A DNA stretch of 64,000 nucleotides from Candidatus Saccharimonadota bacterium. GTDB lineage: Bacteria; Patescibacteriota; Saccharimonadia; Saccharimonadales; AWTP1-31. Location: positions 9,788 through 73,787 of the forward strand of contig RXKC01000006.1 in assembly GCA_003962975.1 (NCBI GenBank), written 5' to 3'. Both the position numbers and the translations under genes were made by a program. Shown in pieces: positions 35,583-61,276 of the stretch; positions within the stretch are counted from its first letter, which is position 1; each line of letters starts with the position of its first letter. The notes under the pieces were generated by a model, which had not been told where the DNA came from, ran no database searches, and saw nothing but the letters and a program-made list of their open reading frames with translations.

Positions 35583-36635
35583 TTATTGCTTAGCCCACAC
35601 GTATACGGTACTACGAGTACTGCCCGACATGGTTAAATAACCATTATCTACCAGTGTTTTGAGCCTACGTTGCAAAGTTCGGCGCGGAACATTTGGCAGT
35701 ACGCTTTCGGCCTCGGCGAGCGATATGGAACCAAATTGTTTGGCATAGCTAAGCAGGTCAGCATCTTCCATGTTGATACGTTTCACTGGCTTATCCCCCA
35801 CTATAACATTGGATAATATCATGACTTCGACCGACAGTACTTTGGCGGATGACAAAAACCCTTCTGCGAAGTAGCTAATCCAGGGGTCGAGTAAGGCAGC
35901 AGTGGCAGTTTGGTAGTCTTCACCCTGGGCCCGGAGTGCGCTGTAGTATTCTCGTTTGTCTGTATAGTAGTACGAATCAAGTACCAGTGCGCCGCGAAAA
36001 TCATAATCATGCAGCCCAAGATAGAGCTGCGTAAGCACACGGGTGGTTCGGCCGTTGCCATCTGAAAACGGGTGGATAGACACGAATTGAAGGTGCAGGA
36101 TAGCCGCTGCGATAACTGGATGCACGTTATGATTATCTTTTAGCCACTCAAGTAGCGCAGTAATTTCTTCTTTTAGGATTATCTTGCTCGGTCCTTGATA
36201 AAGCACTCTGTCATCTTGATCGATAATATCAACGCCAACCGTACGCAAAGCTCCGGCTTTCTCGGAGGGCAGCAACCCTTCCATGACAAGCTCGTGGATA
36301 GTTAGTATGTCCGCAAGCTCGATTGGTTTGCCTGAAGCTTTACGCTTATCGATATAGCCCAGCGCTTTTTTATAGTTGCGCACCTCAATTTCGGCGTATT
36401 GGTGACGCGTCAGCACCGTGCCATCAGCCAACACTTGCTCAACTTGCTTGAGGTTTAGTGGATTACCTTCAATGGCGGTTGAGCTATGGGTGGCCTCAAC
36501 CGTTGCCCGATGGCGCAGTTCTATCTCGCGTTCCGGTAAGATTGGGCTGTGGGCAACTTGTGAACGGAGCGATTCAATCCTAGTTATAGTGGCGAGCAAG
36601 GCATCTGATATTTGGTATTTTGGATGGTATGCCAT
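35583..36635 (-). CDS. fic: Fic-family protein (AMPylase-type) with a C-terminal wHTH
   Basis: Active-site motif HPFSDGNGRTTR, N-terminal inhibitory-type motif STAIEGN, and a C-terminal wHTH (RRTLQRRLKTLVDNGYL). Confidence 0.9.
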   Translation of the reverse strand: MAYHPKYQISDALLATITRIESLRSQVAHSPILPEREIELRHRATVEATHSSTAIEGNPLNLKQVEQVLADGTVLTRHQYAEIEVRNYKKALGYIDKRKASGKPIELADILTIHELVMEGLLPSEKAGALRTVGVDIIDQDDRVLYQGPSKIILKEEITALLEWLKDNHNVHPVIAAAILHLQFVSIHPFSDGNGRTTRVLTQLYLGLHDYDFRGALVLDSYYYTDKREYYSALRAQGEDYQTATAALLDPWISYFAEGFLSSAKVLSVEVMILSNVIVGDKPVKRINMEDADLLSYAKQFGSISLAEAESVLPNVPRRTLQRRLKTLVDNGYLTMSGSTRSTVYVWAKQ

Positions 36636-36805: not shown

Positions 36806-38596
36806 CTACCGCCTTGCCCATCGGCGAGATATGTACAGTATGGTGATGGCAGCTAGGCTAGTAAGGGTTAGTGTAGCCAAAGGGTTATTGAGTAATAGCT
36901 GGAAACCGGTATTGGGTACACCAGGGATAAGACCAGCTAGGTTACCAGAACTAGGCGTGTTCCCGTTAGCGTTAGGTGAGTTAGTAGTAGCACCATAGAC
37001 AAAGCCAACGGCTGTCTGGCCTTGAGTTAGCGTTACGGTCTGAGCAGGTGGTGTTGGATAGCCACTGATAACCGGAGGGGTGAAGGTTTGAGTGGAGCCA
37101 AGACGGTAGTACAGATTAAAGTCATTGGTTGGGTTCTCTATAGCTAGGTAGCTATAGAGACCATCACCGACGACGGTGTCGTCTGGCTGTAGTTCATTGC
37201 CATTACCGTCACTATAGCTAATCAGCCCAGCAGCCGGATTGATAAGCTGAGCCGAGATAACGTCGGTGGTATCACCGTCTTGGTTGATATCTCCACCCTC
37301 ATCCACTTCTCGCCGGACACTGTCGGCCAGACCTAATGTACTTGCCTGAGAAGGGTCTATGTATATCCGTGTATAAATAATATTATCTACTAAGTCCGGG
37401 GCTACTTGGCTATCTTGATGATAAGACTCTATGCTTCTGACAAAATCATGGTAAGCTACGCCCTCTGTAGTAGTTTGAATAAAAAATGTAGTAGGATCTA
37501 GCGTAGTTACCGAATTTGGAATGGTTACTTCGGCAAGCCTGTTACCAGCCAAAGCAAACGCACCAATTGTGGTCACTGAATTTGGGATTACTATTGACTG
37601 TATGCCACAACCGAAGAAAGCATTATCGCTTATAGCAGTAATGCCGTTTGCGATAGTAACTGACGTTAGAGCTCGTAGGGCCATTGCGTATGGTCCAATA
37701 GCCGCCACCGAGGTGCCACCTATGATGCTGGGTATGTTAGCCACCATGCCGATACAGGCGTTGTTGTAAGTCTGCAGTACGGCAATATCTATGTGGTTAA
37801 ACCCCTCGATTGTCCCGGTCCCACTGTTAAATATATAGCACTGGTCGATAATTGGATCGCTTGATGTGTAGTTGTTGCCGTTGTAGGTAACCAGGCTCAC
37901 AGGGTTCATGCCAAACACAGAATATCCGGCGCTAAATGTCGTGCCCTGTATGTTTATACTGGTTATAGCATTACTCACGAAAGCAGTATCCCCAATACTG
38001 TTGACCGATGCAGGAAGCGTTAGTGACGTAATATTGTTAGATCGAAAAGCGTCTCCTCCAATTTGAACCAATGAGCTGTTGAGGCTTACTGTTGTTAGTA
38101 GATTTTGACTGAAAGCACTACTGCCAACGCTGGTAACGGATGGCGGCAAAACAACACTAGTAAGATTATTTTTTGCAAATGCCCCACCACAAGCTGTACG
38201 ATCTGCTATAACCTGTAAACTGCTAGGCAAAACAACACTGGTCAGGTTTTTCTCGCAAAAAGCACCGCCGCCTATATGCGTTACACTTTCGCCACCTAGA
38301 GTAGTTGGTATTTCGGGGTCTCTGGTACAGGCTGGTTGGAGGTTGTCGTTGTTCTGGTGGTCATAGTAATTGGTAATAGTTACCTGGCCAGGGTTTGGGG
38401 TGCTAGCGTTAATGGCAAAGCAAGAGTCTGGAGTGGGTGCAGCATAGACCTTTGAGTTGGTAGATAGGTTAAGTGCTGTGGTATATATACTAGCAAGTAA
38501 GACTACCGCAAGTAGTAGGCTGGTGGCTCGTTTGGTGAGCCTGCTTGTAGCCAAGCAAATAGTTATAAGAGATATTGGGGTTGGTTTGTGGCTCAT
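36806..38596 (-). CDS. BspA-type leucine-rich-repeat surface protein with a VPNTG sorting signal
   Basis: Repeats of the type LTSVVLPSSLQVIADRTACGGAF / NSVTTIGAFALAG. C-terminus is PGVPNTGFQLLLNNPLATL + TM + SRRWARR. Confidence 0.8.
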   Translation of the reverse strand: MSHKPTPISLITICLATSRLTKRATSLLLAVVLLASIYTTALNLSTNSKVYAAPTPDSCFAINASTPNPGQVTITNYYDHQNNDNLQPACTRDPEIPTTLGGESVTHIGGGAFCEKNLTSVVLPSSLQVIADRTACGGAFAKNNLTSVVLPPSVTSVGSSAFSQNLLTTVSLNSSLVQIGGDAFRSNNITSLTLPASVNSIGDTAFVSNAITSINIQGTTFSAGYSVFGMNPVSLVTYNGNNYTSSDPIIDQCYIFNSGTGTIEGFNHIDIAVLQTYNNACIGMVANIPSIIGGTSVAAIGPYAMALRALTSVTIANGITAISDNAFFGCGIQSIVIPNSVTTIGAFALAGNRLAEVTIPNSVTTLDPTTFFIQTTTEGVAYHDFVRSIESYHQDSQVAPDLVDNIIYTRIYIDPSQASTLGLADSVRREVDEGGDINQDGDTTDVISAQLINPAAGLISYSDGNGNELQPDDTVVGDGLYSYLAIENPTNDFNLYYRLGSTQTFTPPVISGYPTPPAQTVTLTQGQTAVGFVYGATTNSPNANGNTPSSGNLAGLIPGVPNTGFQLLLNNPLATLTLTSLAAITILYISRRWARR

Positions 38597-38835: not shown

Positions 38836-40869
38836 TTAAGGCCGCTGGGCAATAATCCAGGCGTACAGGTAGCTGCGAGAATTGGCGCTGTCGATAGTGT
38901 CGGGCCGTAGCTTTTGGGCCAGCTCCAACTGCCCTGCGCTGCGGCTTTGGCTACTTGGACTACCTTGGCTGTCGTACATTAGGGCATAATCGCCAAACGG
39001 TGCGTCGTATGAGTTTAGGGCACCCAGCTCAGTAATGTGGCCAGCTCGAGCCTGGGGGATATCCGAAAATATACTTACCATCGAGGGGCTCATAGGTATG
39101 AGTTGAATACCAAGCTTGGCCAGTGGCTCGGCACTAAAGAACGTGGCATAGTCGCGTTTGCCTCCCCAATTGAGGGAGATTAAGTTATGGGCATAACCCT
39201 CTGAATATGGCTTCTTGGAACTATCGAAAGCCAGCCAATAACTCTTGGCGGACTGCACTTCATTGCTCAGCAGCCAACCAGCCTGAATCGCTAGTTCTGT
39301 GTTAGTTGTCTGTCTAGCCCATAACGACACTCCGATCCAAGCGTTAATTGCTTCCGATGATGATTCTTGGTTGTTGCCATCATTAAATGGCGAACTTCCG
39401 GATGCCCAAGAATGACCCATGTAGGGGTCAAAGACTCTTCGTAACGGCAACTTTTGGCCGTTTCGATAGTTGGCAATATCGGCCACCAACAGATCAATCG
39501 AGCTACGATATCGCTGCAGGAACGGTTTATCGTACTGAGCTAGAATACTAGCGGCGTAGATAAAATAGCCATAATGAAAGTGATGATCGTTGATCTCTTC
39601 TGACCCAAATGAAGGAGTAACGCCCACTACGCTCTGAATACGTGAGTCGTAATAAAAATATCGACCACCCTGGCTGGAAAAGTTCGAGAACCATGATTCC
39701 AGTTGTTGTCTTAGTTTAGTCTGCATAGTGGTGGCGATCTCTTGCTCTGCCAACTGATTGGCTAGCTGCAACAATTGTGCACTGCGATATAGTTCCTTGC
39801 CGGCGTAGTAGCTGTCTGCTGCAGAGTATGTGGTGGCGTTAATATCTTGGCGCAAGGTGGTTACCAGCAGTTCCCTCTGTTTGTTTGTCATTTTGGACAG
39901 ATCAAGAGAAGTTTCTACCGGGGCTCTAGGGGTTATAAAACTGAATAGCTGGCCACTAAGCATCTCTTGCTTTCCATAAATGGTTTCGTAGGCAAACATC
40001 GACTCAGAAGCAGACTGGTGATGTGGCATCATTCCGTAAACAGTTGGCTTATTGTTAATGGTAGAGATATTAATGGCCGTTCGGTAACCAGCATTGTTGG
40101 CCGAATAGCTAACTTCCGCCCCCATTATTCGATTGCCGGCAGTATGCTTTAGAGGGTCTTGATTAAGCGTAGCCGGCAGTGCATATAAACTAGCCAAACC
40201 ACCGGTGGGCATTGCCATCGATATACTTTGGCCACTAGCTGTTAATTCTGAACCGTTAAATCCAACTACGTGATAGCTAACCGTAGGCGTCTTATATTCG
40301 GCACTAGACGTAGCAGCGGTGGGGGTAGTCCCAGCCACCGACATAGACAGTTTAGCGGCAGACATTGACGAAAATTGAACATAAGGAGAGCCTTCTAGGA
40401 CAGTAACCAGCCCAATAGCCGTGCCGTCAGTGCGGTAGTATGTTAGGTCAAGAGATAACTCATCGTACCGGCTAACCATATAGTGGTTAGCGCCCTCTAC
40501 CTGAACTGTAGCTTTTTGTGAGACATCACTAGCGATAGAGTCAGCGGCTACCTCTACCTCAGGCAGGCTATAACTAAACGAGGTGCTAGAGGCCGTAAAC
40601 CCCAGTGGCATCGGAAAAACAGTCTTAGGTTGTTTTTGTAGAGCGAGACCGCTAAACCATTTGTTGGTAGGCGGAACAAGACCCGGGGCCAGATGGCTCG
40701 TGTCAATACCGCTAGAATCTCTCTGCTCTAAACCAGATAATACTGACTCATTTACGAGCGACACGCCTGTATGCTTGACAGAATTCTGTCTTGTTACAGC
40801 CAAGATACCTGCCGCTACTAATAAAAGTACCGTTGCAGTAGCAATGCCAAGCTTGACTGACCGCTGCAT
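38836..40869 (-). CDS. Membrane-anchored glycoside hydrolase family 81 (endo-beta-1,3-glucanase-like)
   Basis: N-terminal TM. GH81 hallmark EEINDHHFHYGYFIYAASILA. About 680 aa. Confidence 0.75.
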   Translation of the reverse strand: MQRSVKLGIATATVLLLVAAGILAVTRQNSVKHTGVSLVNESVLSGLEQRDSSGIDTSHLAPGLVPPTNKWFSGLALQKQPKTVFPMPLGFTASSTSFSYSLPEVEVAADSIASDVSQKATVQVEGANHYMVSRYDELSLDLTYYRTDGTAIGLVTVLEGSPYVQFSSMSAAKLSMSVAGTTPTAATSSAEYKTPTVSYHVVGFNGSELTASGQSISMAMPTGGLASLYALPATLNQDPLKHTAGNRIMGAEVSYSANNAGYRTAINISTINNKPTVYGMMPHHQSASESMFAYETIYGKQEMLSGQLFSFITPRAPVETSLDLSKMTNKQRELLVTTLRQDINATTYSAADSYYAGKELYRSAQLLQLANQLAEQEIATTMQTKLRQQLESWFSNFSSQGGRYFYYDSRIQSVVGVTPSFGSEEINDHHFHYGYFIYAASILAQYDKPFLQRYRSSIDLLVADIANYRNGQKLPLRRVFDPYMGHSWASGSSPFNDGNNQESSSEAINAWIGVSLWARQTTNTELAIQAGWLLSNEVQSAKSYWLAFDSSKKPYSEGYAHNLISLNWGGKRDYATFFSAEPLAKLGIQLIPMSPSMVSIFSDIPQARAGHITELGALNSYDAPFGDYALMYDSQGSPSSQSRSAGQLELAQKLRPDTIDSANSRSYLYAWIIAQRP

Positions 40870-40873
40870 CGTA

Positions 40874-41602
40874 CTATTGGCCGGAGGTCGGCCTTAACAG
40901 AGACTGAACTTTATTCTTAACGGCACTATACCAAGTGTCCGAGTCTAAATGCAGCGTAGTAGTTAATGGTGTGCCAACAGAAAAAGCTGTCTTGTTTATA
41001 GCGTCTTGATTAAATCTGGCTCTGACGGTTGTGAGCACTTCTTTATCGACAGTGCTCAGTTTAAAGTCGTAGACACTACCTTCGACCTGTTTATCGTCTG
41101 GAAAAACGATGGTCAGCTTACTGTTGGTATTGAGCCTGGAATAATCAGGTGAAGACAGTTTGTAGGTAGCTTCCACATATAGCTTGTTCTCTATGTTTAT
41201 GGTGGCTATCTGACTGTTCGCCGGCACAAATGCCCCACGACGATAACCAATAGACTGAACCTGCCCAGGGGCAGCCGCCGAAATGGTGACCAAGCCATCA
41301 TTAGTTAAGGAATACAGTAAAGATGACTTGGCGACATCATTGTTTCTAATGGCATCACTGAGCGTTGGGCTACGTAGTGCAAACAATGGATCTTTAGTCT
41401 TGATATAGGCACCCTCGTCAACAAATTGTTTTTCGATGATACCCGAATAATCTACGCCTACCGTGTAATTGTCGGACTGTAGTCGAGCGTCGATTGAATC
41501 TACCTTGGACATAGAATAATTCAGATACATAAACAACCCGGCACAAACCAACACCACCGCCAGCATGCCAGCTAAGAATTTTATTCTTACTACCGGTTTC
41601 AT
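40874..41602 (-). CDS. HlyD/membrane-fusion-type protein lacking a coiled-coil hairpin
   Basis: N-terminal TM. Lipoyl-like halves GIIEKQFVDEGAYIKTKDPLFAL and APGQVQSIGYRRGAFVPANSQIATI, followed by a beta-barrel region. Confidence 0.6.
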   Translation of the reverse strand: MKPVVRIKFLAGMLAVVLVCAGLFMYLNYSMSKVDSIDARLQSDNYTVGVDYSGIIEKQFVDEGAYIKTKDPLFALRSPTLSDAIRNNDVAKSSLLYSLTNDGLVTISAAAPGQVQSIGYRRGAFVPANSQIATINIENKLYVEATYKLSSPDYSRLNTNSKLTIVFPDDKQVEGSVYDFKLSTVDKEVLTTVRARFNQDAINKTAFSVGTPLTTTLHLDSDTWYSAVKNKVQSLLRPTSGQ

Positions 41603-43128
41603 ATATTATCTCCTTTTATGTGTGCTAATTTATTGTGATTTGCTCGTCTCATACTTTTAGCCTCTCTGGCTGCCACCCACACAAAATATCCAAAAATAAA
41701 GGTATTAAGTGCTGACCATATAATCGACACCGAGAACTCCCTGGTGTAAGCACTCTTCCATATGCCTATCAAAGTAGTAATGCCCAAGAAAAGGAATACG
41801 TATACTTGGGCACGCATATAGTTAAAGGGTGAGTCATAGGAATCGACACGATTTGTAGCTTGCCATGATTCGTCTTGTCCACGCAAAGCATTGAAAAATG
41901 CCTTAATGTATATCGGAAACGATACCGCAGACAGCATCAACGTTTCAAACTGTAACTTACCCATCACATAGACAGACAGTACCAGCTGAGTTAGATAAAA
42001 ACCAGAATACAACAAAGCCCACTGCCAGACGGGTATACTGAGGGCAATTGGCGTAAGGTTAAGATATATCTGTAAAGCTGGCAAAAGCAATAATCCGGCA
42101 ATAGCAAAGCCATTAAAGTAGAACATCGTGGAATAAAGATACTGAATTCGTTGGTCTACAGTTAACCCCCTGTTAAAAAGTGGGTTACGTTTTAGGAATA
42201 TTTCAAAACTACCTGTCGCCCAACGAAGTTGTTGCTTTGAGTAGGCTTTGATTGTTTCGGGAGTCTTGCCGATTGCCATAACTCGATTAATATATACCGA
42301 CCTATAGCCATGTTCGTGTAATATCATTGAGGTCCAGATATCCTCGGACTTTGACTGCTGGTATACACCCCCCATGGCCATGACCGCACTACGACGAAAC
42401 ATTACATTAGTGCCCACGCAAAAAGCAGCATTAAATTTATTCTTGCCAACCTGAACCAAAGAATAGAATATATGCTGCATAAAACCAGCTCCACTAGAGA
42501 TAAAATTGACTTGGTTGCTATAGAATTGCGGTGTCTGCACTAGCGCCATCCGAACATCTTCAAAAAATGGTAGAGTTTCGATAATAAAATAGCTATTAGC
42601 CACAAAATCGGCATCTAAGATTACGAAAAACTCACCATTAGTCTTGCTCAGGGCGTGGTTAATGTTCCCTGCCTTGGCATGTTTATGCTCGGCACGTCGC
42701 ATATAGCCGACACCTACGCTGGCTGCCATAGCTTTAACCTCGTCTGAATTACCGTCGTCTAGAATATAGGTAGCGTGCTTGCCATAGAGCCCTTTGGCCG
42801 CCAAGGCAGTCTGTCGTATTTCGCTGACCGGCTCTCCATATACTGGAATGAATACATCGACAGAAACTGGCTTAGAGTTAATATACATCTGCTTGTCTAA
42901 AGTGGTCATAGTTTTGTATGACTTGATATCTTTAATAACCGTTTTAGTAAAGTCGCCAAAAATATTGTTCTTGGCATTGTAATACCCGAAGTGCCTTGGA
43001 TTAATCCGGCCGCTCAGAATAGTCCAGAATGACATCGATCCCAAAATAATAAAAAATAACTCCGAAACAATTACCATGGCGTAAGGCAAAGCGTCGCCTC
43101 TATAGCCAGGTTGCAATAAAAACACCAT
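41599..43128 (-). CDS. Processive family-2 glycosyltransferase (BcsA/CrdS-like beta-glycan synthase), no PilZ domain
   Basis: ILDDGNSDE, HAKAGNINHAL, VILDADF, SEDIWTS, QQLRWATG, and multiple TMs. The reading frame stays open 141 nt upstream without a canonical start. Confidence 0.8.
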   Translation of the reverse strand: MVFLLQPGYRGDALPYAMVIVSELFFIILGSMSFWTILSGRINPRHFGYYNAKNNIFGDFTKTVIKDIKSYKTMTTLDKQMYINSKPVSVDVFIPVYGEPVSEIRQTALAAKGLYGKHATYILDDGNSDEVKAMAASVGVGYMRRAEHKHAKAGNINHALSKTNGEFFVILDADFVANSYFIIETLPFFEDVRMALVQTPQFYSNQVNFISSGAGFMQHIFYSLVQVGKNKFNAAFCVGTNVMFRRSAVMAMGGVYQQSKSEDIWTSMILHEHGYRSVYINRVMAIGKTPETIKAYSKQQLRWATGSFEIFLKRNPLFNRGLTVDQRIQYLYSTMFYFNGFAIAGLLLLPALQIYLNLTPIALSIPVWQWALLYSGFYLTQLVLSVYVMGKLQFETLMLSAVSFPIYIKAFFNALRGQDESWQATNRVDSYDSPFNYMRAQVYVFLFLGITTLIGIWKSAYTREFSVSIIWSALNTFIFGYFVWVAAREAKSMRRANHNKLAHIKGDNI

Positions 43129-43403: not shown

Positions 43404-44633
43404 CTATTCACGGCGTAAGGCTTCGGTTGGGTCGATGGTCTCTGCTCGTCTGGAGGGGAAAAAGGCGACCAGAAAACCAACTATGACCATCAGTAACATC
43501 AGCACCAAGACCAGCCAAAGAGGTGTAGAAAATAGCTGGAAGCTTTCCGCAACTCCGCGCGATTTAGCGAGTTTATTAAGTAAGATATTCGCTAACTGAC
43601 CAACTAACACAGCTCCGGCCATGCCGATTGCCGAACCAATTACGGCCAGCAATGTGGCCTCGCCAATAAAAATGCGGCGCATATCGCGCCGACGACCACC
43701 CATTGCAAACATCAAACCGATCTCTTTGGTGCGCTCTAGTAGTGAAACCGTTAGGGTATTAAACATACCCAGCACGGCCACAATCATACCAATTGCTCCG
43801 AAACCAACCAGAGCAAATGTGAAATATTTAAATATTTGATTAACTTGGTCTAGGGTGTCTACTGGCGATGTTGTTTCAAAACCGATACTCTCTATTTGCC
43901 GTCTTATTTGGGGGATGTCCTCTACATTATTAACGGCCAATTTAAGCTGGGAGTACTTTGACTGACCGCCATCCTGGAAAACTCTAGCAGGGACAAATAC
44001 GATATTCTCTGACTCGCTTTTTACGACGCCTACTACTTTCATCTTTGTTTTAAGAGTCTTAGGATTTTCTGAGTCAGCAGCCTTAAAAGGAATATCCAGA
44101 TCAATCGTCTTACCAATGATATCCTTTGGGTTGTTGACACCAATAGTTCGTAGCTTGTCGGTACTAACAATTGCTACGTTGCTGTCTTTATCTGTAAACC
44201 TCCGCCCCTCGCTGATTGCCAGGTCGGATAATGATTGATACCCTTCGTCTACACCGTAGGTTGGACCACTAGACTCACTACCCTTATATTTGATAATGCC
44301 AGGGGCAGCAAAAAGCACCCCTACCTTCTGAACATTTGGCAACTGACGAATACGATTTGCAGCTCTATTGTCTAAGGTCACAATGCCAGACTTAGCGCTG
44401 GTAATATCAACTGTCTTTATCGAGTTACCACCGACTAGCTTATCGGACACCAGATTCTGCAGACCAAGACTGATAGACATCAGGAAAAAAATGGCACCAA
44501 TTCCGACAGCAATACCAATGACCGTCAAAGATGTGCGCAACTTTTTGTATAGCATGTTCTTCCAGACCATGAAAAATATTGCACTCAGTGGAGCTGCCGT
44601 ATACCGACCTTTTCTAAAGCTTAGCAGTCGCAT
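43404..44633 (-). CDS. FtsX/MacB-type ABC permease with a large extracytoplasmic domain
   Basis: KKLRTSLTVIGIAVGIGAIFF (TM1), a loop of about 220 aa, and three C-terminal TMs with ERTKEIGLMFAMGG. The start may be an internal Met (44570 or 44555). Confidence 0.8.
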   Translation of the reverse strand: MRLLSFRKGRYTAAPLSAIFFMVWKNMLYKKLRTSLTVIGIAVGIGAIFFLMSISLGLQNLVSDKLVGGNSIKTVDITSAKSGIVTLDNRAANRIRQLPNVQKVGVLFAAPGIIKYKGSESSGPTYGVDEGYQSLSDLAISEGRRFTDKDSNVAIVSTDKLRTIGVNNPKDIIGKTIDLDIPFKAADSENPKTLKTKMKVVGVVKSESENIVFVPARVFQDGGQSKYSQLKLAVNNVEDIPQIRRQIESIGFETTSPVDTLDQVNQIFKYFTFALVGFGAIGMIVAVLGMFNTLTVSLLERTKEIGLMFAMGGRRRDMRRIFIGEATLLAVIGSAIGMAGAVLVGQLANILLNKLAKSRGVAESFQLFSTPLWLVLVLMLLMVIVGFLVAFFPSRRAETIDPTEALRRE

Positions 44634-45411
44634 GGCGTTTGAGCTCCTTATTCTGTTTGATTTCTTGTTCTACCTCATTCATTAATGTCTTTATTTGAGC
44701 CGAGGTCTTATCGGGTGCGACATCAAGCACCCGACCATCTTCGATTTTCAGCAAGTGATCGGCTAAAGTTATATAGCCCATGTTATGCGTAACAACGATA
44801 ACCGTCCGTCTAAATACGGCCTGACTGTCAATTAAAAGTTTCATGATGTTACGGCTATTTTCGCTATCTAGATTGCCAGTTGGTTCATCAGCAATAATTA
44901 GCAACGGACTATTGGCCAGAGCCCTGGCCATGCCGATCCGTTGTTGTTCACCGCCAGATAGCATGATAGGACTTTTTTTGGCATAGCTAGCCATACCTAC
45001 GTAGTCTAGTGCTTGCATAGCCATTTTTAGACCCTCTTTCTTGGTGTAGCCAAGGAAAAATAATGGCACCGTCACGTTATCTAATACGTTAAGGCTTTTT
45101 ATCCAATAATTTGCCTGGTGCACAAAGCCCACCTTGTTAGCCCGATGGGCAGCCAACTCATCTGGGGACAAGGCATAAATGTCTTTGCCTCCAACTATTA
45201 CTTGACCCGATGAGGGTGCTTTAAGGCCAGCCAGTATATCTAGTAACGTCGATTTACCGCTACCCGACGAACCGTAAATAATATTGAAACTATTGGCCTT
45301 AATATCAAAGTTTATGTCAGTCAAAACCGTAACTTTTTCGTCGCCAACATCAAAAACCTGATTCACCCCAGTAACACTCATCAAGACCGAGTCATCATAT
45401 GTTTTTGTCAT
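44614..45411 (-). CDS. ABC ATP-binding protein (MacB/LolD/FtsE type)
   Basis: [36 protein letters not shown]. The ATG directly follows the TAA of the giant gene. Confidence 0.9.
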
Positions 45412-48400
45412 TTAGAATCCAAATATCCCCTTAATTGTAGTCAGCACAATGGTTATGACATCATTGCTAGCCCGACCAATAATTGCCGTGTCGACACCAC
45501 CCAAACCAATATTCTTTGATTTATCGGCCGATAACGGCTGGACAGAATATACTTTAGAGGTCGAGACGTCCGAGATTACCACCACATGGTCCGTGGTTAA
45601 GGCAGTGTCCTCGGCACTCTTGTTCTGTAAGCCAGTAGCCTGTGATCCTTCAGCAAAGGCTACCTGGCTAGTAGACGGTTCGTCAGTCTTCCAGCTAATA
45701 ACAATCTGGCCTCTAGCTTCAGCCCCCATGCCGCGCACCGAGGTTTCGATGACGATGTCGCTAATCTTAGGCGGCCTGGTATCCAGCGCCGTGCGCAGAG
45801 TCTGCGCCTCGGAAGTAGCAATATTACCTCCAGCATCACGTGACTCGGCTAAGAGTCTGTACTCGGTATCATCAACCAAGCCCCTAACTACAATTTTGTG
45901 ATCTGTTTTGAGGACTGAATCAGACAATTCTTGGGCAGCCAGCCCCGTAGATGTGAGCCTGATAAGAGAAGTTGTTGGTACATTAGTGTTCCAGGTAATA
46001 ACCTGAGAACTAGTTGGTTCACCTGCGAGTGGCTGAAAATGCAGATTAGATATCCTGGGTCGGGCTGGTGTAGTAAAGGAGTATAGATCGCCCCGGTATT
46101 CACCGCCCTCATTGTCATACAAAGTAACTCTGAAGAAGTATTTTGTATCATCATCCAAACCAGTTAATTCAATATTGTAAGTAGACTCACTAAGTGAAGT
46201 GTTAACGCTCTGTTCACCGCCCAAAGATTCGGACTTGCCGTAATGGATGGCTGCCCTTGAGGCATCTTTTGAAGTAAAGCCCAGCAGCGCACTAGACAAT
46301 GACACTCTGTCAGTTTTGACCTCTTTAACAACGGGCGCCGGTGCGGTCGTAAAGCTAAACTCACTTGATACGCCAGTATTGCCATCTTCGTCCGTCCACC
46401 TGGCAACCATATAGTATTTAGTACCAGCGTCAAGGTTGTTTAACTCGATGCTATGGTATGTAACCTGGGAGGAATTACTAATTTCAGCCGCAAAGTAACT
46501 GCCCGGAGCCTTGCCAACAGCAATTTTGCTATCGCTCTCTCGGTTGGTAGACCAGTTTACTTGCGCTCGCTTTGTCGTAATATTGGTCACAACCGGACGG
46601 GCAACTAGTTCGGCCGGTTCGGTGTAGCGTCCGGTCGGTATCAGACTCACTGTCGAGCCGTTAACACCGCAGTTATTTGCGCTATCACAAGCTTTAACTC
46701 GGTAATAGTACCTTTTGGCAGTCTGCAGCCCAGAATCAACATAGCTCAGTCCGGCGGTAGTAGCGATCTGAGAGAATGCAGAGTTATCCTCTGACCTAAA
46801 GATTCTATAGTTAGCAACTCCGGCTCCACTGTCGGTAGGTGCCGCCCAGCTGAGAGCCAACTTCCAGTTAGCAATTGCTCTGGTAGAGATATCAGCAATC
46901 TCAATATTAGTAGGAATACCAGGAGCAGAAGTATTAGCCGTGAATTTTACACTCTCGTAGGTAGCGTAATTAATGTTATTGGCTTCGTCTTGGGCAACCA
47001 CATAGAAGGTGTTCTCGCCAGGCTGAGTGGCAAATGGGCCGGCTGGCACTGCAGTAACACCAGCAGCAGTAAAGGTGCAGGTCTGGGCCGTTGGCAATGT
47101 ATTAATCGTATAGCAATACTTCAGCCCACTCGCGCCACCAACAAAACTATTAGGAACCGCCCAATTAAAAGCGAATGAGTTAGTAACATTAGTGGCAGGT
47201 GTTGCAGTTACAGAACGGGGTTGAGACGGCGCCGACGTATTAACTTTAATGACAGCCGTCGTGTAACTGGTCGAGAAGTTTCCAGCTTGGTCTACTGCTC
47301 TAAAGTAGACTATGTTGTTGCCTTCTATCATATTAGGGTAGTCTATATTTTCATCTGTGCGGTACGAGCCATTATTCGGCAGAATATCGGTAATATCCTG
47401 TGCGCCATTATGTGCTACCCCGTACCATGTGCCCTCACCGCCAATACGATATTGCAAGCCAAGCAAGCCACTGTGGCCATCGTTAGCCATCTGATCGCCA
47501 GTTGTTGGCCAGGTCAATGTCACGTCTCTAGAGGCCAAGAACTGCGACGGTGCAGACACAAACCCCGGGGCGTTGGGAGCCAAGTTATCAAATCTAAAAT
47601 GGAAATCTTCGGATGCGCCTTGGTATAGATTATTAGAATTATCGAGCACCTTGATTTTTATATAGTAAGGGCTCGTTGCCGAGGCTAACGGGGTAGATAA
47701 CAAACCCGACGTTGCTAGATTTAGACTACTAGAGCTAACTGCAAAAGGACAGGCATTATCGGTGTCTATCTGGCTTGAGCCTAAATACCCTTTATCACTA
47801 GCCGGGTTAGCTGCTGCGTTAGGACCTAGATACAGGCAGTAGCCCTTAACGCCGCTCGCTCCCGGTGAGTTATCATCCTGACCTGGACTCCACTGAAAAT
47901 ATGGGCTATTGGTTGACACCCAAGCATTTTCGGCAATCACATTGCCTGTTAAGCCAGTTTTCATAATAATATTGTCTGCGTTGTCTGAGGGGGGATTAAT
48001 ATCTGGGTTAATTGTAATGTCTACTCCATTCAATACTATCGCCTGCGAACCGTTGCTAACAAGATATGCCTTCCATTTAAAGTCCCGCGTACCAACCGGG
48101 AAATCTTCGATATGCTGGTCGATTGTCGCGGCCGTACTATACTCGCCACTACCTGCAGGAGCCCAACTAGCCCCGTCCCAGTAGTGATAGGTCAAACCGT
48201 CATCGTTAGAGATCTGGTAGTATATCTCGCCACCATTCTTGGTGGCCGATTCGGTAAAAGATTGCCAGCTAGCCACTGCCGCCGGTGAATAAGCCTGATT
48301 AGGTTCGATAGTTGGTGCATCAAGAGCATACCGTTTGCCTACAAAAGAAGCCCCGCTGTCGGTAGTGCCCACAACCATCCGATTTTCGTCGATCACCTTA

Positions 48401-51240
48401 ACCGAGTTAAACTCGTTACTAGCTATATTGGGTATAGAATTTTTATCTATCGTCTGCCCGATAACAGGGGTATTGGTAGTGACCCCATCTATCCTCAAGA
48501 TACGGCCGTCCTGTACGGCGCTAGAGTTATGAACCGAGTAATAGCGATTATTAGCCACATCCATACTGCTGTTACTAATACGAATTGGCGCATACCCAGG
48601 CAAGGTTGTATTATTAAGCTCCACTTCACTAGTTAGGGAAGAATAGCCACCGTAGCCGGTATATTTAACACGAAGATAACGAGCTGTTGTAGTACTAAAC
48701 GATGTGTCATGGCTGGTACTAGCTCCGTAATAACTAGCCGCCTGTGCCAAACCGCTAATACTCTTCAGCTGAGTTACTGTTCCGCTGTCGAAAGCCGTGT
48801 TATACACTTTCATTTCCCGAATTCCAAAATGTGTATTAGGTACGTATGTGCTAAGTACTTTTATCCGTACAGACTTTACGGTAGTCTGAGCAAAACTGCT
48901 GAGCTTAGCCATTGATGAGTTATTAGTAACAGTCGCCAGCGTGCTAACACTCCCTGACTCAAACATAGAAGAATACGGCTCAACTTCAAAAATCCTTACC
49001 CCATCAGAACCATTATGATTACCCGATTGTGTAACATGTATCCTTATATACCTACCCGTCACAGGCGAACTAAAAGTCACCCTGTTGTATTGACTCGTAT
49101 TATTCGCTGCAGTATGAGCGGTAGACCAGCTTGAAGCATCATTACTATACTGGACAGTATAGTCTTTAGTTGTGTACCCATACTCTGTCACCCATGATAA
49201 GCCAGCAACTGTCTGCGAGCTGCCCAGGTCTAACTGCAACCATTGTGGGGCGGTAGAGGTAGGAACACCACTTATCCAGCGACTACCTAAATTGTTGTCG
49301 TATGTTTTTTGGGCATTATAATTTGCATCATTGCTGTACAGACTTGATGCCGTTGCTCCAACCACAGTTATTGGGGTCGTCAACGAAGAACTACCCTCGA
49401 TCTCGTAATTCTTCCCACCGCTATTCTGATCATGGAACTGCATATCCACGGCACTAATCTGCTGAGGGCTAGCAAAGCTTAGTTCAAAAAGTGGCCCAAC
49501 TTGGTTCGCAGGAAATCCAGAGTAGAACGAGTTACCAAAGTTATTGTCTATAGCATTATTGCTCAAATGACCTGCGCCATAAGCCCACTGGCTACGCGGG
49601 GTAGCGCTGGTTGCTATATTTGCTGATGTACCCTGAGTGCTAGCTTCTATAGTATAGGCCGAGGGCATATAGCGAACATCCGACCAAAAAAATTGCCTCA
49701 GATGGTTAAAAGTCTTAGCGGAGCCTAGGTCAAACTCTAGCCACTCATCCATTTGATTCGACTGCCCTATATAATGACTACCTAAATTATTGTCGTTGAC
49801 GTTAGTAGCCACCCCTGTCCTAGCCTGCACCTGGGCACCGGCTAGTAAATTTGCCCCTTTGGCACTATTGGCAAATGCATTAATGGTGCTAGCCGAGGGC
49901 GTGACCCTATTTTCCTGAATAATAATCAACCCGTCGTCGGATTCTACGTATATAGTGTTGTTGCCAGCATTGGCGGTAGATGTTCCTTCTGTCACCTTAA
50001 GGCCGGTAAATTTGCGCTTGGGTGGGTCTGGCCCGTGCAGTGGCGCCCAGTCATTACCATAATCTACCGAAGTGGCTGTCCAGCTCCAATCCGCCAACTG
50101 ATTTATGGCTCCATACTTTACCAATATAGCACCGCCCGTACCCATGCCGTTTTCACGTAAGTCGTAATACATGGTACCGTCGCTGGTTAATACGGCTCCC
50201 GTTATAAACCAACCGCCCGGAGAGAGCGCCTTAACAATACTTGGCGTGCCTTGGTCGTCCTTAATAACATGAGCATGAGTACCTGTCGTAACACTGAGGT
50301 ACACCTTGCCAGCAATAGTTATAGTGTTTATCCTCTTGACATCTTGGTCGGTCATGGCCGGGCTGGAAGTAGTCGAGTATCTAGGGGTGCCGAGTGCAGT
50401 GTTATTGCCCAGGCTACTAATCTGCCATCTGTATATCCCACCGTTTTTACCGGCATACAAATAACCATCGGCTACCGCTACTGTTCTAAAGCCACCGCCA
50501 GCCATAATAAACGCCGATCGTTGCCAAGTATCCTGACGGATAACATCGATACCTAGATCGCTGGACACAAAATAATAACTACTGTCCGCCGTTACATCCA
50601 AGATATTGTTGGATTGCAACTGACCATCGGCTACCGAAAAGTTCTTAACTGCGTCACTAAGTTTAAGCCGTAAGTTATTACTGTTAGCCTCTATCTTGCT
50701 GCCATTAAAACTGTAGTCGCCCGGATTGTTAAAGTTCCAGGAAAATCCGGTATCGGCCGCCAGTGTACGAGCCCCCAGCCCAACAAAACTAACCACTGCT
50801 ACCAGTACTATAAGCCCATGCACATGTCCATGATGCAGCCATTTGTACTGCCAACTATGCCACCGGTTGTAAAGGTTGGATCTGTCCATAAGGTGCTGGT
50901 GAGGACGATGAGCTATATGATGATGGGTAGTTCGGTAATGCCTAATAAGCCTACTACCTAGTTTGGTTCTGGCTAGTGGGGCTAGTGCCGGGCGTAGTAG
51001 TTTGCGAACCACTTTTGTAAACAAGGTGATAGCCAAGTTAACAACGTAGGCTAGATGTAACATGAGTTGCAGTAGCCAACACAAGACAGATCGAATCGGA
51101 CGCAGGGCACGTCGTAAGCGAGCTCGTAACAAAACCAATCTAGAACTCGTTATTTTGGAGTCCTGGCTCACCTCTGGTGACGATATCTTTTTAGGCTCTG
51201 AAGTCTTTAGGGGTTGCTTATTACTTTTCATGTTTGGCAA
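45412..51240 (-). CDS. Giant (1942 aa) N-terminally anchored surface protein with discoidin (F5/8 type C)-like and FN3 domains
   Basis: TM LIVLVAVVSFVGLGA. Discoidin-like NLGSRWISG..WLQLDLG..YTVQYSND. FN3 YRIFRSEDNSAFSQI..YYYRVKA. Four C-terminal PAP-N-like FN3 repeats. TTG 51240 and ATG 51231 are both possible starts. Confidence 0.8.
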   Translation of the reverse strand: MPNMKSNKQPLKTSEPKKISSPEVSQDSKITSSRLVLLRARLRRALRPIRSVLCWLLQLMLHLAYVVNLAITLFTKVVRKLLRPALAPLARTKLGSRLIRHYRTTHHHIAHRPHQHLMDRSNLYNRWHSWQYKWLHHGHVHGLIVLVAVVSFVGLGARTLAADTGFSWNFNNPGDYSFNGSKIEANSNNLRLKLSDAVKNFSVADGQLQSNNILDVTADSSYYFVSSDLGIDVIRQDTWQRSAFIMAGGGFRTVAVADGYLYAGKNGGIYRWQISSLGNNTALGTPRYSTTSSPAMTDQDVKRINTITIAGKVYLSVTTGTHAHVIKDDQGTPSIVKALSPGGWFITGAVLTSDGTMYYDLRENGMGTGGAILVKYGAINQLADWSWTATSVDYGNDWAPLHGPDPPKRKFTGLKVTEGTSTANAGNNTIYVESDDGLIIIQENRVTPSASTINAFANSAKGANLLAGAQVQARTGVATNVNDNNLGSHYIGQSNQMDEWLEFDLGSAKTFNHLRQFFWSDVRYMPSAYTIEASTQGTSANIATSATPRSQWAYGAGHLSNNAIDNNFGNSFYSGFPANQVGPLFELSFASPQQISAVDMQFHDQNSGGKNYEIEGSSSLTTPITVVGATASSLYSNDANYNAQKTYDNNLGSRWISGVPTSTAPQWLQLDLGSSQTVAGLSWVTEYGYTTKDYTVQYSNDASSWSTAHTAANNTSQYNRVTFSSPVTGRYIRIHVTQSGNHNGSDGVRIFEVEPYSSMFESGSVSTLATVTNNSSMAKLSSFAQTTVKSVRIKVLSTYVPNTHFGIREMKVYNTAFDSGTVTQLKSISGLAQAASYYGASTSHDTSFSTTTARYLRVKYTGYGGYSSLTSEVELNNTTLPGYAPIRISNSSMDVANNRYYSVHNSSAVQDGRILRIDGVTTNTPVIGQTIDKNSIPNIASNEFNSVKVIDENRMVVGTTDSGASFVGKRYALDAPTIEPNQAYSPAAVASWQSFTESATKNGGEIYYQISNDDGLTYHYWDGASWAPAGSGEYSTAATIDQHIEDFPVGTRDFKWKAYLVSNGSQAIVLNGVDITINPDINPPSDNADNIIMKTGLTGNVIAENAWVSTNSPYFQWSPGQDDNSPGASGVKGYCLYLGPNAAANPASDKGYLGSSQIDTDNACPFAVSSSSLNLATSGLLSTPLASATSPYYIKIKVLDNSNNLYQGASEDFHFRFDNLAPNAPGFVSAPSQFLASRDVTLTWPTTGDQMANDGHSGLLGLQYRIGGEGTWYGVAHNGAQDITDILPNNGSYRTDENIDYPNMIEGNNIVYFRAVDQAGNFSTSYTTAVIKVNTSAPSQPRSVTATPATNVTNSFAFNWAVPNSFVGGASGLKYCYTINTLPTAQTCTFTAAGVTAVPAGPFATQPGENTFYVVAQDEANNINYATYESVKFTANTSAPGIPTNIEIADISTRAIANWKLALSWAAPTDSGAGVANYRIFRSEDNSAFSQIATTAGLSYVDSGLQTAKRYYYRVKACDSANNCGVNGSTVSLIPTGRYTEPAELVARPVVTNITTKRAQVNWSTNRESDSKIAVGKAPGSYFAAEISNSSQVTYHSIELNNLDAGTKYYMVARWTDEDGNTGVSSEFSFTTAPAPVVKEVKTDRVSLSSALLGFTSKDASRAAIHYGKSESLGGEQSVNTSLSESTYNIELTGLDDDTKYFFRVTLYDNEGGEYRGDLYSFTTPARPRISNLHFQPLAGEPTSSQVITWNTNVPTTSLIRLTSTGLAAQELSDSVLKTDHKIVVRGLVDDTEYRLLAESRDAGGNIATSEAQTLRTALDTRPPKISDIVIETSVRGMGAEARGQIVISWKTDEPSTSQVAFAEGSQATGLQNKSAEDTALTTDHVVVISDVSTSKVYSVQPLSADKSKNIGLGGVDTAIIGRASNDVITIVLTTIKGIFGF

Positions 51241-54775: not shown

Positions 54776-56221
54776 ATGCGACGGATAGCTAGGCTGCTTA
54801 GACCACAGCGCAAACATGGCTCGCTTTATTTAACGTATAGCCTACCGGCAACAGGCAGTATTAAGAGTCGCTTTAGTCCAGCTTCGATAACGGCCACAAT
54901 TTGTTTGCTACTAACATTGGCCGGTTTATCGCCGATTGCTGTGGATAGCAGCAATGTGCCGTCAGCCCTGGCTGCAGACGAAGAAGAACCCTACTCGATA
55001 TTTATTATTGCCGGACAATCGTTGGCAGCCGGGGTGGCTGCCTACCGAGCAGAGCTACCAACCGGAACTGGGTTTGGCAACCAAGATCACCCTGGTGACA
55101 CTGCCACGCAGTTCTGGTGGGCTGGGTCTAATGGCGAGGGATTAACTGATGCTCAAATTGCTGCCTTCTTTCCCTTCTATAATTCTCCTGGCCAGATGGG
55201 CTGGGCTTATTCTGGAGGGGCCGGTAATGCTGCGCCCGGGTCGACTCGCTTACTAAACGATATAAATGGCTCGCAGGTCGTCAACGCTGGCTCACAAAGC
55301 TCGGGTATGTTTGGCCCAGAGTTTGGCGTAGCCCGAACTTTGCACGATATGGGTCGTCGAAAAGTAATTATCCTAAAAGTAACCTATGGCTTTCAGTCGC
55401 TGGGTCAGTCCAGCTCACCAATTATTCCTTTTGATTGGAATGTCAATTCTACTAGTGGCGACCCTAATCGACCAAAAAGCTACACCCAGCTCAAAAATCA
55501 ATTCGATCAGCTAACTAACCATCTGCGATCCCAGGGGAAGAAGTATACCGTCGATGGTATATTCTGGATGCAAGGCGAAACCGACACCCTCCAGAATGAG
55601 TACGCAGCTGCCTACCAACAGAACCTTACCGACCTTGTAAATAAGGCTCGCCAGGATCTACAGTTACACCCCTACGGACATTTTGTGATCGGCAAGACCA
55701 ATATGGACTACTGTATAGAACATTCCTGGCCACGCTATAACGACTACTGCGACTATCCTTCGGCCAGTTCGATTGACCCGCCTCAGTTTGTTAACTTAAC
55801 GACCTTTATGATTGACCCGGTCATGCCAGCTAGGCTAGCCCAGGTAAGAGCCGCTCAACAGGCAGTTGCCGATGCCGACCAAAACACCACCCAAAAAGTT
55901 GATATTGTCGAAACGGCAGACCTTCCAAGAGGGCTCGACTTTACCCACTTGAACGCACCCGGGCAAATAGAGCTTGGTCGTCGCTTTGCTAGCATGTACC
56001 GTTTACCGCTACGCTTTACCGACAGCCGAGCTACCGACTTTGATAGTGATGGCGCACTGAATAACCTAGAAGATACTGGCCGTGGAGCAAGCTGTCCATT
56101 AGTAGTTGCTGGTCAGACTATCAATGCTGCTGGCAATGGCAATCTAGGAGATGACGACAGCGACTGTGATAACTTCCCTAACTACCTAGACAATGTTAAC
56201 GGGCCAGGAAGTGGACTATGA
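54776..56221 (+). CDS. Secreted SASA-type carbohydrate esterase (sialate O-acetylesterase-like) with a TSP3-like Ca-binding C-terminus
   Basis: IFIIAGQSLAAG and IFWMQGETD. C-terminal DFDSDGALNNLED and GDDDSDCDNFPNYLD. Confidence 0.55.
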   Translation: MRRIARLLRPQRKHGSLYLTYSLPATGSIKSRFSPASITATICLLLTLAGLSPIAVDSSNVPSALAADEEEPYSIFIIAGQSLAAGVAAYRAELPTGTGFGNQDHPGDTATQFWWAGSNGEGLTDAQIAAFFPFYNSPGQMGWAYSGGAGNAAPGSTRLLNDINGSQVVNAGSQSSGMFGPEFGVARTLHDMGRRKVIILKVTYGFQSLGQSSSPIIPFDWNVNSTSGDPNRPKSYTQLKNQFDQLTNHLRSQGKKYTVDGIFWMQGETDTLQNEYAAAYQQNLTDLVNKARQDLQLHPYGHFVIGKTNMDYCIEHSWPRYNDYCDYPSASSIDPPQFVNLTTFMIDPVMPARLAQVRAAQQAVADADQNTTQKVDIVETADLPRGLDFTHLNAPGQIELGRRFASMYRLPLRFTDSRATDFDSDGALNNLEDTGRGASCPLVVAGQTINAAGNGNLGDDDSDCDNFPNYLDNVNGPGSGL

Positions 56222-61188: not shown

Positions 61189-61276
61189 GTCTCCAAGGTG
61201 ATATAATCTAAGCATAAGTTTAATGCACGCTAGACCTATGCATCTTAGGGCTTTTGTGCAAAAAGGATAATAGATT

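Follow-up and report, generated by a model that had tools for sequence, protein, structure and literature searches.

A three-gene cassette of Saccharibacteria couples a giant modular surface protein to a type VII ABC complex and may encode a motor-based host-binding fibre

A 64,000-nucleotide (nt) stretch of DNA from a Candidatus Saccharimonadota bacterium (assembly GCA_003962975.1, contig RXKC01000006.1, positions 9,788-73,787), hereafter the window, carries on its minus strand three consecutive genes for a giant surface protein, an ABC ATPase and a permease of the MacB/FtsX type (Table 1, in window coordinates). An initial annotation had described these genes, and its account of them is borne out by an open reading frame (ORF) map, a hydropathy scan, Pfam searches and AlphaFold2 (AF2) models. 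The giant ORF, read from a TTG codon, encodes 1942 amino acids (aa) with an Arg/His-rich N-terminus, a single hydrophobic segment (aa 140-156), discoidin and FN3 modules and a short hydrophobic C-terminal tail (...RASNDVITIVLTTIKGIFGF). Its TAA stop codon (45412-45414) is followed at the very next base by the ATG of the ATPase gene, the ATPase and permease genes share 20 nt, and the permease matches Pfam MacB_PCD and FtsX, with a modelled topology of four transmembrane (TM) segments and a large outside loop. Gene callers on an identical contig start the giant protein at an ATG 9 nt downstream of the TTG, which yields 1939 aa. The permease start at ATG 44633, on which the 20-nt overlap depends, is supported by a Met1 that is at least 90% conserved in a 42-sequence alignment. 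An identical permease occurs on 16 metagenome contigs with the same gene block around it.

The adjacency of the giant and ABC genes, whose loss in relatives would have refuted the functional proposal of the initial annotation, is kept in relatives when approached from either end. Alignment of the permease against one genome per GTDB species matched 414 loci, and the GTDB counts given here rest on the best 80 of these, nearly all from Saccharibacteria. The ATPase gene lies upstream of the permease gene in 80/80. Seventy-five of the loci show a large tail-ending ORF abutting the ATPase gene, four are without upstream DNA and one (L055) carries a frameshifted giant gene; with the last included, a giant abuts the ATPase in 76 of 76 evaluable loci. 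Starting from the giant instead, 79 metagenome loci were drawn from at least 556 matches to a profile of its last FN3 domain plus the tail. The ATPase gene directly follows the tail, with gaps estimated from alignments, in 69 of the 73 loci having at least 900 nt of downstream sequence, and the permease gene is present in 52 of the 53 with at least 2300 nt; the four exceptions all fall within the most divergent tail subgroup.

The details of the junctions point the same way. In seven diverged loci the order giant-ATPase-permease is kept and all flanking genes differ, and the giant-ATPase junction is tighter than chance, as the stop-to-start spacing is only -4 to +2 nt in six diverged relatives. 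The ATPase and permease genes overlap by 1-17 nt in relatives, as against 20 nt in the window, and coupling is still kept in the most distant relative, L018, whose permease and ATPase are only 31-39% identical to those of the window. Judged by such comparisons, the three genes are a conserved, translationally coupled cassette that is duplicated as a unit, and the cassette spans Saccharibacteria and at least one other lineage of Patescibacteria, being present also in one Berkelbacteria assembly. A fragment from WWE3 has mutS as its next gene instead of the ABC pair. Consensus scans of the region from 36.5 to 52 kb returned 26 promoter-like sites where 26.0 would be expected and 17 terminator-like sites where the expectation is 13.5, and the sole strong hairpin falls within the permease ORF; operon boundaries are unreadable from such scans. 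An Rfam scan of the window found four tRNAs only, none near the cassette.

Table 1. Features of the cassette and of the genes next to it, in window coordinates
Feature	Position	Strand	Basis or remark
Giant modular surface protein	45412..51240	(-)	ORF map; Pfam discoidin and FN3
Leader n-region, aa ~29-139	50824..51156	(-)	Strongly basic; His/Trp motif HHHIAHRPHQHLMDRSNLYNRWHSWQYKWLHHGH at its end
Hydrophobic segment and AxA-like site, aa 140-162, VHGLIVLVAVVSFVGLG-ARTLAA/DTG	50755..50823	(-)	Hydropathy and alignment
Variable head, aa 163-1069, with two discoidin (F5/8 type C) domains	48034..50754	(-)	Pfam
Conserved stalk, aa 1070-1922, Ig/FN3-like domain array	45475..48033	(-)	Alignment, Pfam, AF2, Foldseek
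C-terminal tail, aa 1923-1942, RASNDVITIVLTTIKGIFGF-COOH, hinge and amphipathic helix	45415..45474	(-)	Alignment, AF2
ABC ATPase, 265 aa	44614..45411	(-)	Pfam ABC_tran 2e-28
ATPase C-terminal extension, aa 229-265, charged and helix-like	44617..44727	(-)	LolD match stops at residue 228
Type VII ABC permease, 409 aa	43404..44633	(-)	Pfam MacB_PCD 1e-21, FtsX 3.7e-18
Permease ectodomain, aa ~70-256, ~180 aa, Porter+Sabre type	43866..44426	(-)	AF2 secondary structure
GT2-HlyD-GH81 module	38836-43128	(-)	Pfam, NCBIfam
BspA-type LRR protein	36806-38596	(-)	Pfam LRR_5, 1.2e-39

Thirteen full-length homologs of the giant protein, 53-94% identical to it, are deposited under the name 'discoidin domain-containing protein [Candidatus Saccharibacteria bacterium]'. 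Others (P0014-P0017) match it only in the first ~150 and the last ~870 residues and carry other domains between. By alignment, the giant family is thus built of three conserved modules, a leader, a stalk and a tail, with a lectin-like head that is swapped. The leader is kept even in head-swapped relatives. In the stretch of 60 aa that precedes the hydrophobic segment, 54 full-length members have on average 12 Lys plus Arg, 7.3 His, 2.9 Trp and 1.3 Asp plus Glu, and the recurring motif can be written HHH.A.RPH.HL...W.WY..WH.W.WH. An exhaustive phmmer search of 1.84e9 cluster representatives with the leader returned only 31 matches, and all full-length ones end in the tail; with matches so few and every full-length one tail-bearing, the leader is specific to the giant family. 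Two proteins among the matches, P0264 and P0289, were rejected as unrelated repeat proteins. When the 54 members are aligned, the leader is followed by ~17-20 hydrophobic residues, a short spacer and then ALS/DL, AAS/DL or AA/DT. The hydrophobic segment is accordingly predicted to be either the h/c-region of a cleaved signal peptide or a signal anchor, and the architecture of the leader agrees with a signal peptide of the Gram-positive type in which the n-region is extended and cleavage would be expected.

The head is the part that changes. In the window protein, Pfam F5_F8_type_C recognises two stretches (E 2.5e-31), the better one at aa 629-743 (49012-49356); in relatives the head is replaced by DUF2341, FG-GAP/VCBS, BclA_C-like domains, or LamG with a repeat array. 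Discoidin heads are confined to the window and a minority of relatives, and the majority type is a LamG domain broken by a long array of ~45-aa repeats. Single-linkage clustering of heads fused the discoidin and LamG types through their shared flanks, and the types were read from sequence and Pfam instead. In representatives of the majority type (L020:3048-9176, L036, P0017), ~15-20 copies of the repeat, with a consensus of about GNLYAGLG..GDAEVW.WNG..W..IGGDG.NSSW, are inserted into LamG, and one might guess that they fold as a beta-propeller. The window head also has a disrupted counterpart. Three independent assemblies (L001, L003 and L005) carry an extra T (GGTTG to GGTTTG) at window position 49237-49239 (codon 668), in the second discoidin domain, as their sole difference from the window over 8.2 kb. 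The insertion splits the giant into ORFs of 688 and 1184 aa; in L002 and L004 the gene is whole. The change, from TT to TTT, involves no long homopolymer, which speaks against classic slipped-strand phase variation and makes this a strain-level frameshift allele.

The stalk and tail, by comparison with the head, are held constant. Stalk identity is 51-64% over ~873 aa across all family members regardless of head. Pfam places FN3-type domains (fn3, Pur_ac_phosph_N and Arylsulfotran_N) at aa 1457-1725, and an AF2 model of aa 1634-1942 shows three FN3 sandwiches with a predicted local distance difference test score (pLDDT) of ~90, for which the Foldseek matches are tandem FN3 structures. Generic FN3 matches from unrelated bacteria (P0018-P0020 and L019) were dropped. 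The tail carries F-G-[FLY] in 79 of 80 distinct C-termini, 76 of these at the exact terminus, and its Ile(-20) and Phe(0) are invariant. The hydrophobic moment of the tail is greater for a helical (0.32-0.39) than for a beta (0.13-0.21) arrangement, and the amphipathic helix within it reads NDVITIVLTTIKGIFGF. AF2 places this helix at residues 294-307 of the model with pLDDT 52-59, beyond a low-confidence hinge and unpacked against the FN3 domains. A search of the giant for an LPXTG-like motif ([LIVP]PX[TSA]G) found none, and the protein ends FGF-COOH. In one divergent lineage, tail-bearing LamG and discoidin/NHL giants stand in tandem (L102:5574-16223 and L103), each followed by a coiled-coil-like ORF of 133-153 aa and with no ABC pair within 9 kb; this layout may be an alternative arrangement.

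The initial annotation had named, as a finding that would refute its proposal, an ABC pair that is housekeeping FtsEX or a lipoprotein-release system; the pair is neither. The closest NCBIfam models for the ATPase are LolD, MacB and FtsE, and its scores stay far below their cut-offs (FtsE 168 bits vs 265, LolD 199 vs 308), and the permease scores 66 bits vs 362 for lolCE and 26-31 bits against FtsX models with cut-offs of 225-255. By its motifs the ATPase is catalytically intact, with a Walker A, a Q-loop, the signature LSGGEQQR, a Walker B (IIADE) with the catalytic Glu and an H-loop (VTHN). Its C-terminal extension is present in 80/80 GTDB loci (L020-L099), with a median length of 35 aa and the pattern ...M..RI..L...K... 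The MacB_PCD match of the permease spans positions 1-206 of the 207 in the profile. The AF2 model (pLDDT 77) comprises an elbow helix (residues 16-29), TM1 (31-67), an ectodomain (74-255), TM2 (257-310), TM3 (315-358) and TM4 (372-399). The best Foldseek matches of the permease are LolE (E 3e-23), MacB, the pneumococcal structure 5xu1, YtrF and HrtB, with E values from 1e-14 to 3e-23; the top 50 contain no FtsX. At the domain level, the ectodomain is matched by 3ftj, the periplasmic domain of MacB (TMt 0.69), and by 5f9q, the ectodomain of YknZ (TMt 0.73), and by sequence against the PDB the permease finds YtrF (6e-24, residues 169-409 only), MacB (5e-18) and FtsX (E=7e-4). With an elbow helix, four TM helices, an ectodomain and catalytic motifs, the modelled permease and the ATPase belong to the type VII ABC systems, which have the MacB/FtsX/LolCDE fold; the fold matches, the sub-cut-off NCBIfam scores and the gene context together set the pair apart from FtsEX, LolCDE, MacAB-TolC and YtrEF. 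Type VII complexes either act mechanically on extracytoplasmic proteins dedicated to them or pull hydrophobic moieties out of the outer leaflet (PMC12646458, PMC5985334, PMC8333309), and a dedicated extracytoplasmic partner accompanies every characterised system (PMC12646458, PMC5985334). For the cassette, conserved genetic coupling makes the giant protein a candidate for such a partner.

Duplicated cassettes offer a view of how tightly the three genes keep together. A 95-kb contig (Ga0226835_1000207) carries two cassettes (L122 and L125) 38 kb apart, whose stalks are 62% identical and whose tails are almost the same, while the ATPases and permeases are only 48% identical, which shows that the whole unit was duplicated long ago within one genome. 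A second contig (ERZ650304.2-NODE-2) has two complete or near-complete cassettes (L135 and L169); the claim of several copies per genome rests on these two contigs, both from metagenome-assembled genomes. One shared extractor would serve both tails, and the keeping of separate ABC pairs therefore favours a stoichiometric, dedicated partnership. Across 118 complete cassettes, stalk and permease distances correlate with r=0.84, a value reached in 0 of 999 permutations, which equals the correlation of the ATPase with the permease (0.83). With the ATPase controlled for, stalk and permease have a partial r of 0.57, and with the permease controlled for, stalk and ATPase have one of 0.21; the last FN3 domain plus tail tracks the membrane domain of the permease best (partial r 0.62, as against 0.29-0.36 for the ectodomain). 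These figures are supportive rather than decisive. The leader tells another story: the DNA of the window at 50816-51156 is 92.7% identical over 341 nt to L015:4998-5338, a DUF2341-headed cassette beside ribosomal protein genes in another assembly, whose remainder is ~55% identical at the protein level and whose DNA elsewhere is ~70% identical or does not align. Leader DNA so much more alike than the rest indicates that modules are exchanged between cassettes, and points to recombination or gene conversion as the route by which paralogous copies came to share the leader module.

Taken together, these observations are best accommodated by a cassette that encodes a modular surface fibre together with its own type VII ABC complex, the latter serving as membrane base and motor, a reading to which we assign a probability of roughly 0.45. 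The giant protein would be exported via Sec by means of its extended basic, His/Trp-rich leader, would present its variable, glycan-binding head at the distal end of a stalk of ~nine Ig/FN3 domains, and would retain its C-terminal amphipathic helix (...FG[FL]-COOH) at the outer face of the membrane. There, a permease dimer would capture the tail helix, in the cavity between its TM helices or at the base of its ectodomain, making the ABC pair the membrane base of the fibre. The mechanical effect of ATP binding and hydrolysis might then reach the tail, in the manner of other type VII systems, and either seat the fibre or alter its conformation. The product would be an adhesion device of the form 'one fibre, one motor', most plausibly binding glycans on the surface of a host bacterium. 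The initial annotation had proposed that the pump acts on the giant protein, and this part of its proposal gains from the synteny; the pump may release, activate or remodel its partner, options among which sequence does not decide. A bolder formulation, that Saccharibacteria and at least some other Patescibacteria have a hitherto unrecognised surface-protein system in which the motif ...IIGRAxDxVLxIVLNTLxxxFG[FL]-COOH is a new C-terminal sorting signal read by a dedicated type VII complex, which both anchors and ATP-actuates a head-swappable host-binding fibre of ~2,000 residues, is possible but rather unlikely.

Several points weigh against a fibre with its own motor. A static anchor needs no ATPase, and the nature of the mechanical work is left unspecified. 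An uncleaved leader could place the N-terminus, instead of the C-terminus, next to the membrane. The frameshift allele in three assemblies implies that the fibre may be dispensable in some populations. Some divergent tail-bearing proteins have no ABC pair next to them (L100, L102/103, L173, L174 and L180/181), and among the genes downstream of these proteins no consistent alternative partner is conserved. The co-variation is confounded by common phylogeny and unequal rates, and its values for the ectodomain stand near saturation (mean distance 0.60). Finally, in the cultured model Southlakia epibionticum a MacB-type pair, an ATPase gene followed by the permease gene (SEML1_0054/0053), is preceded by a tRNA gene and not by a giant gene, and no genetic evidence can be transferred from it. 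Two further candidates from the same species were set aside: the genes annotated as 'FN3' and 'VCBS' and found essential by transposon sequencing (SEML1_0890 and SEML1_0891; PMC10633639) are short genes of 588 and 1698 nt with no relation to the family, and SEML1_0385-0387 is a different FtsX-type system beside a two-component system.

The strongest competing explanation is that the ABC pair acts in a Lol-like manner. The tail of the Sec-exported giant would sit in the outer leaflet until the pump expels it, freeing the fibre to the wall, the S-layer or the medium, and the tail would then be a transient substrate and a new C-terminal sorting signal with no stable partner. Among the top fold matches of the permease are lipoprotein-bound LolE and also HrtB, two extractors of hydrophobic moieties from the outer leaflet, the catalytic motifs of the ATPase are intact, the tail is moderately hydrophobic and amphipathic, and it is with the permease membrane domain that the tail co-varies best. 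We nevertheless regard release of this kind as unlikely, if far from negligible, and prefer a stable partnership, since one ABC pair per fibre is kept despite near-identical tails: a single extractor could serve all paralogous cassettes, yet these retain pairs as different as 48% identity. Moreover, the cassette is without a LolA-like acceptor or a sortase-type anchoring partner, and the giant is without an LPXTG-like motif.

The extra parts of the two cytoplasmic ends lend themselves to a different coupling, in which the leader remains uncleaved, its His/Trp/Arg motif binds the ATPase extension and its TM helix packs on the permease, so that the N-terminus would fix the giant in the complex as an integral subunit, or else the ABC pair would assist the targeting of the giant to the membrane. 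The ATPase extension could indeed contact the leader motif on the cytoplasmic side. Both elements are otherwise unexplained; the extension is a conserved extra helix of ~35 aa found at every locus inspected, the leader is as conserved and family-specific as the tail, and leader DNA is the one segment shared at high identity between otherwise diverged paralogous cassettes. Against such N-terminal coupling, nearly all members have an AxA/AxS-type site after the hydrophobic segment, which fits cleavage; the variable head follows the leader directly, where a binding module would be expected to be distal rather than membrane-proximal; and the stalk and tail co-vary far more with the permease than with the ATPase. 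On balance this arrangement seems improbable. Still more doubtful is the view that the genes are independent neighbours, the ABC pair serving efflux or resistance like MacB, YknYZ or YtrEF, perhaps against antimicrobial peptides, and having no more than an operon in common with the giant. In favour of this view, YtrF and MacB are the nearest solved sequences, and there are MacB-type pumps in Gram-positive bacteria for which no protein partner is known (PMC12772383). Nevertheless, near-universal synteny in both directions, with translational coupling maintained down to 31-39% identity, is not the expected behaviour of mere neighbours, all the more as the synteny survives head swaps, differing neighbourhoods and within-genome duplication of the whole unit, and as the stalk co-varies with the permease to the same degree as the ATPase does.

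Scarcely credible, finally, is the larger proposal of the initial annotation that the whole 14.4-kb block constitutes one host-attachment module with the HlyD-like protein as the missing adaptor of the pump, for which shared strand and closeness in the window and near-identical strains speak, but which is contradicted by the absence of GT2, HlyD-like, GH81, LRR and Fic relatives within 10 kb of the trio in all 88 related loci (1.48 Mb), by the intergenic spacing and by a separate sorting signal on the LRR protein. Its observations as such were correct, in that every gene from 51240 down to 36806 lies on the minus strand and the only gene resembling a membrane-fusion protein (HlyD-like, 242 aa, 40874..41602) is located 1.8 kb downstream of the pump, beyond the GT2 gene. 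The permease gene is separated from the GT2 gene by 275 nt, whereas the GT2 and HlyD-like genes overlap by 4 nt and the HlyD-like and GH81 genes are 4 nt apart; this spacing assigns the HlyD-like gene to a separate GT2 module. The GT2 protein resembles cellulose synthases (NCBIfam CelA 1e-70, under the cut-off), and the module looks like a set of synthase, adaptor and trimming beta-1,3-glucanase for a beta-glucan exopolysaccharide, an assignment from domain content that would account for the orphan membrane-fusion protein by giving it a glucan-synthase module of its own. The LRR (leucine-rich repeat) protein ends in a sortase-type signal (VPNTG, a hydrophobic stretch and RRWARR), which implies that the organism also uses conventional wall anchoring.

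Other genes of the window lie further out. A Fic-domain gene (35583-36635, minus strand), just downstream of the LRR gene, is kept in near-identical strains. Downstream of it, a DDE_Tnp_1 transposase gene (34151-34915, minus strand, 254 aa) is present in the window and L002 but absent from L001, whose spacing here is reduced by ~900 bp, which indicates an insertion sequence polymorphism between near-identical strains. A second cluster of genes for large proteins lies on the plus strand (54776-62776), where the gene for an SASA-type carbohydrate esterase (481 aa) overlaps by 4 nt the gene for a protein of 1656 aa that bears a Big_7 Ig domain and, at its C-terminus, HATPase_c, reminiscent of a giant sensor kinase, and a gene for a 499-aa pectate-lyase-like protein comes next. 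Among the related loci, L014 encodes an NHL-repeat/HATPase_c protein of 3247 aa.

Host recognition and attachment in Saccharibacteria and other Patescibacteria are largely obscure, and published genetics of host attachment points mainly to type IV pili. With its wide spread, its interchangeable lectin-type heads and the possibility of multiple copies, the cassette is a strong candidate for a host-range determinant, and its distribution may be put at hundreds of species-level genomes (414 GTDB loci matched, the best 80 inspected). It would also supply a type VII system of a Gram-positive-type, single-membrane bacterium with a new and genetically hard-wired partner, whose C-terminal helix offers a simple peptide handle on mechanotransmission versus extraction. 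As annotation rules, the leader and tail motifs would allow entries now scattered among 'hypothetical', 'discoidin domain-containing' and 'ABC transporter permease' to be gathered into one system. If the bolder formulation given above is correct, these ultrasmall epibionts would exert energy-dependent control over attachment, and the cassette would bring with it a new kind of C-terminal sorting signal and a fifth functional class of type VII systems beside FtsEX-EnvC, LolCDE-LolA, MacAB-TolC and YbbAP-TesA.

A search of the literature found no published description of the giant/ABC cassette, and its nearest relations must be sought among systems that resemble it in part. Like FtsEX, whose partners are EnvC, PcsB, CwlO and RipC, the cassette has a separate ATPase and a four-TM permease of the FtsX family, and since FtsEX transports nothing and instead passes its ATP cycles to a docked outside protein, it is the closest functional analogue of the action proposed here. 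The cassette permease differs from FtsX in having a full MacB_PCD (Porter+Sabre) ectodomain and in scoring far under the FtsE/FtsX cut-offs. The partners differ as well, a lectin/FN3 fibre of ~1,900 aa with a C-terminal helix in place of a coiled-coil hydrolase activator, and the gene for the cassette partner lies immediately upstream and is translationally coupled. LolCDE and HrtBA, which contribute the best structural matches to the permease, take up a hydrophobic moiety from the outer leaflet into the space between their TM helices, and their ATP-driven handling of the captured moiety is a plausible model for the tail. No second permease gene is found in the cassette of the window or of the relatives compared, and with a single permease gene the cassette presumably forms a homodimer, in contrast to the LolC/LolE heterodimer. 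Further differences are the lack of a LolA-like acceptor, the sub-cut-off Lol scores and a candidate ligand that is a protein helix rather than acyl chains or heme.

The MacB-type ectodomain aligns the cassette with MacAB-TolC, YknXYZ, Spr0693-0695 and YtrEF, among which YtrF and MacB are the closest solved sequences. MacAB moves a protein toxin. Unlike MacAB-TolC, the cassette has no gene for a membrane-fusion protein or an outer-membrane duct (HlyD-like genes accompany 0/88 related loci), and its nucleotide-binding domain is a separate polypeptide with a unique C-terminal extension. Unlike YtrEF, it has no ytr-like neighbours at any locus, the context of the ytrGABCDEF operon being absent. 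The closest genomic analogy is with the adhesins of type I secretion systems (LapA-LapBCE, RTX), in which a huge, repetitive adhesin with a conserved signal at its extreme C-terminus is encoded next to a dedicated ABC transporter. These systems employ an exporter of the HlyB fold, need a membrane-fusion protein and an outer-membrane protein, and export substrates without an N-terminal signal peptide, whereas the cassette ABC is of type VII, the giant has an N-terminal leader and the cassette includes no membrane-fusion protein. From the sorting systems LPXTG/sortase, PEP-CTERM/exosortase and GlyGly-CTERM/rhombosortase comes the precedent of a short conserved C-terminal motif that is shared by diverse surface proteins and occurs strictly together with a dedicated membrane partner. 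There, the partner is a transpeptidase or protease and not an ABC ATPase and permease, and the cassette tail is an amphipathic helix at the very end of the protein, with no TM segment and basic residues after it. Each of these likenesses is partial, and of the known groups compared, the only one to which the cassette belongs is the type VII superfamily.

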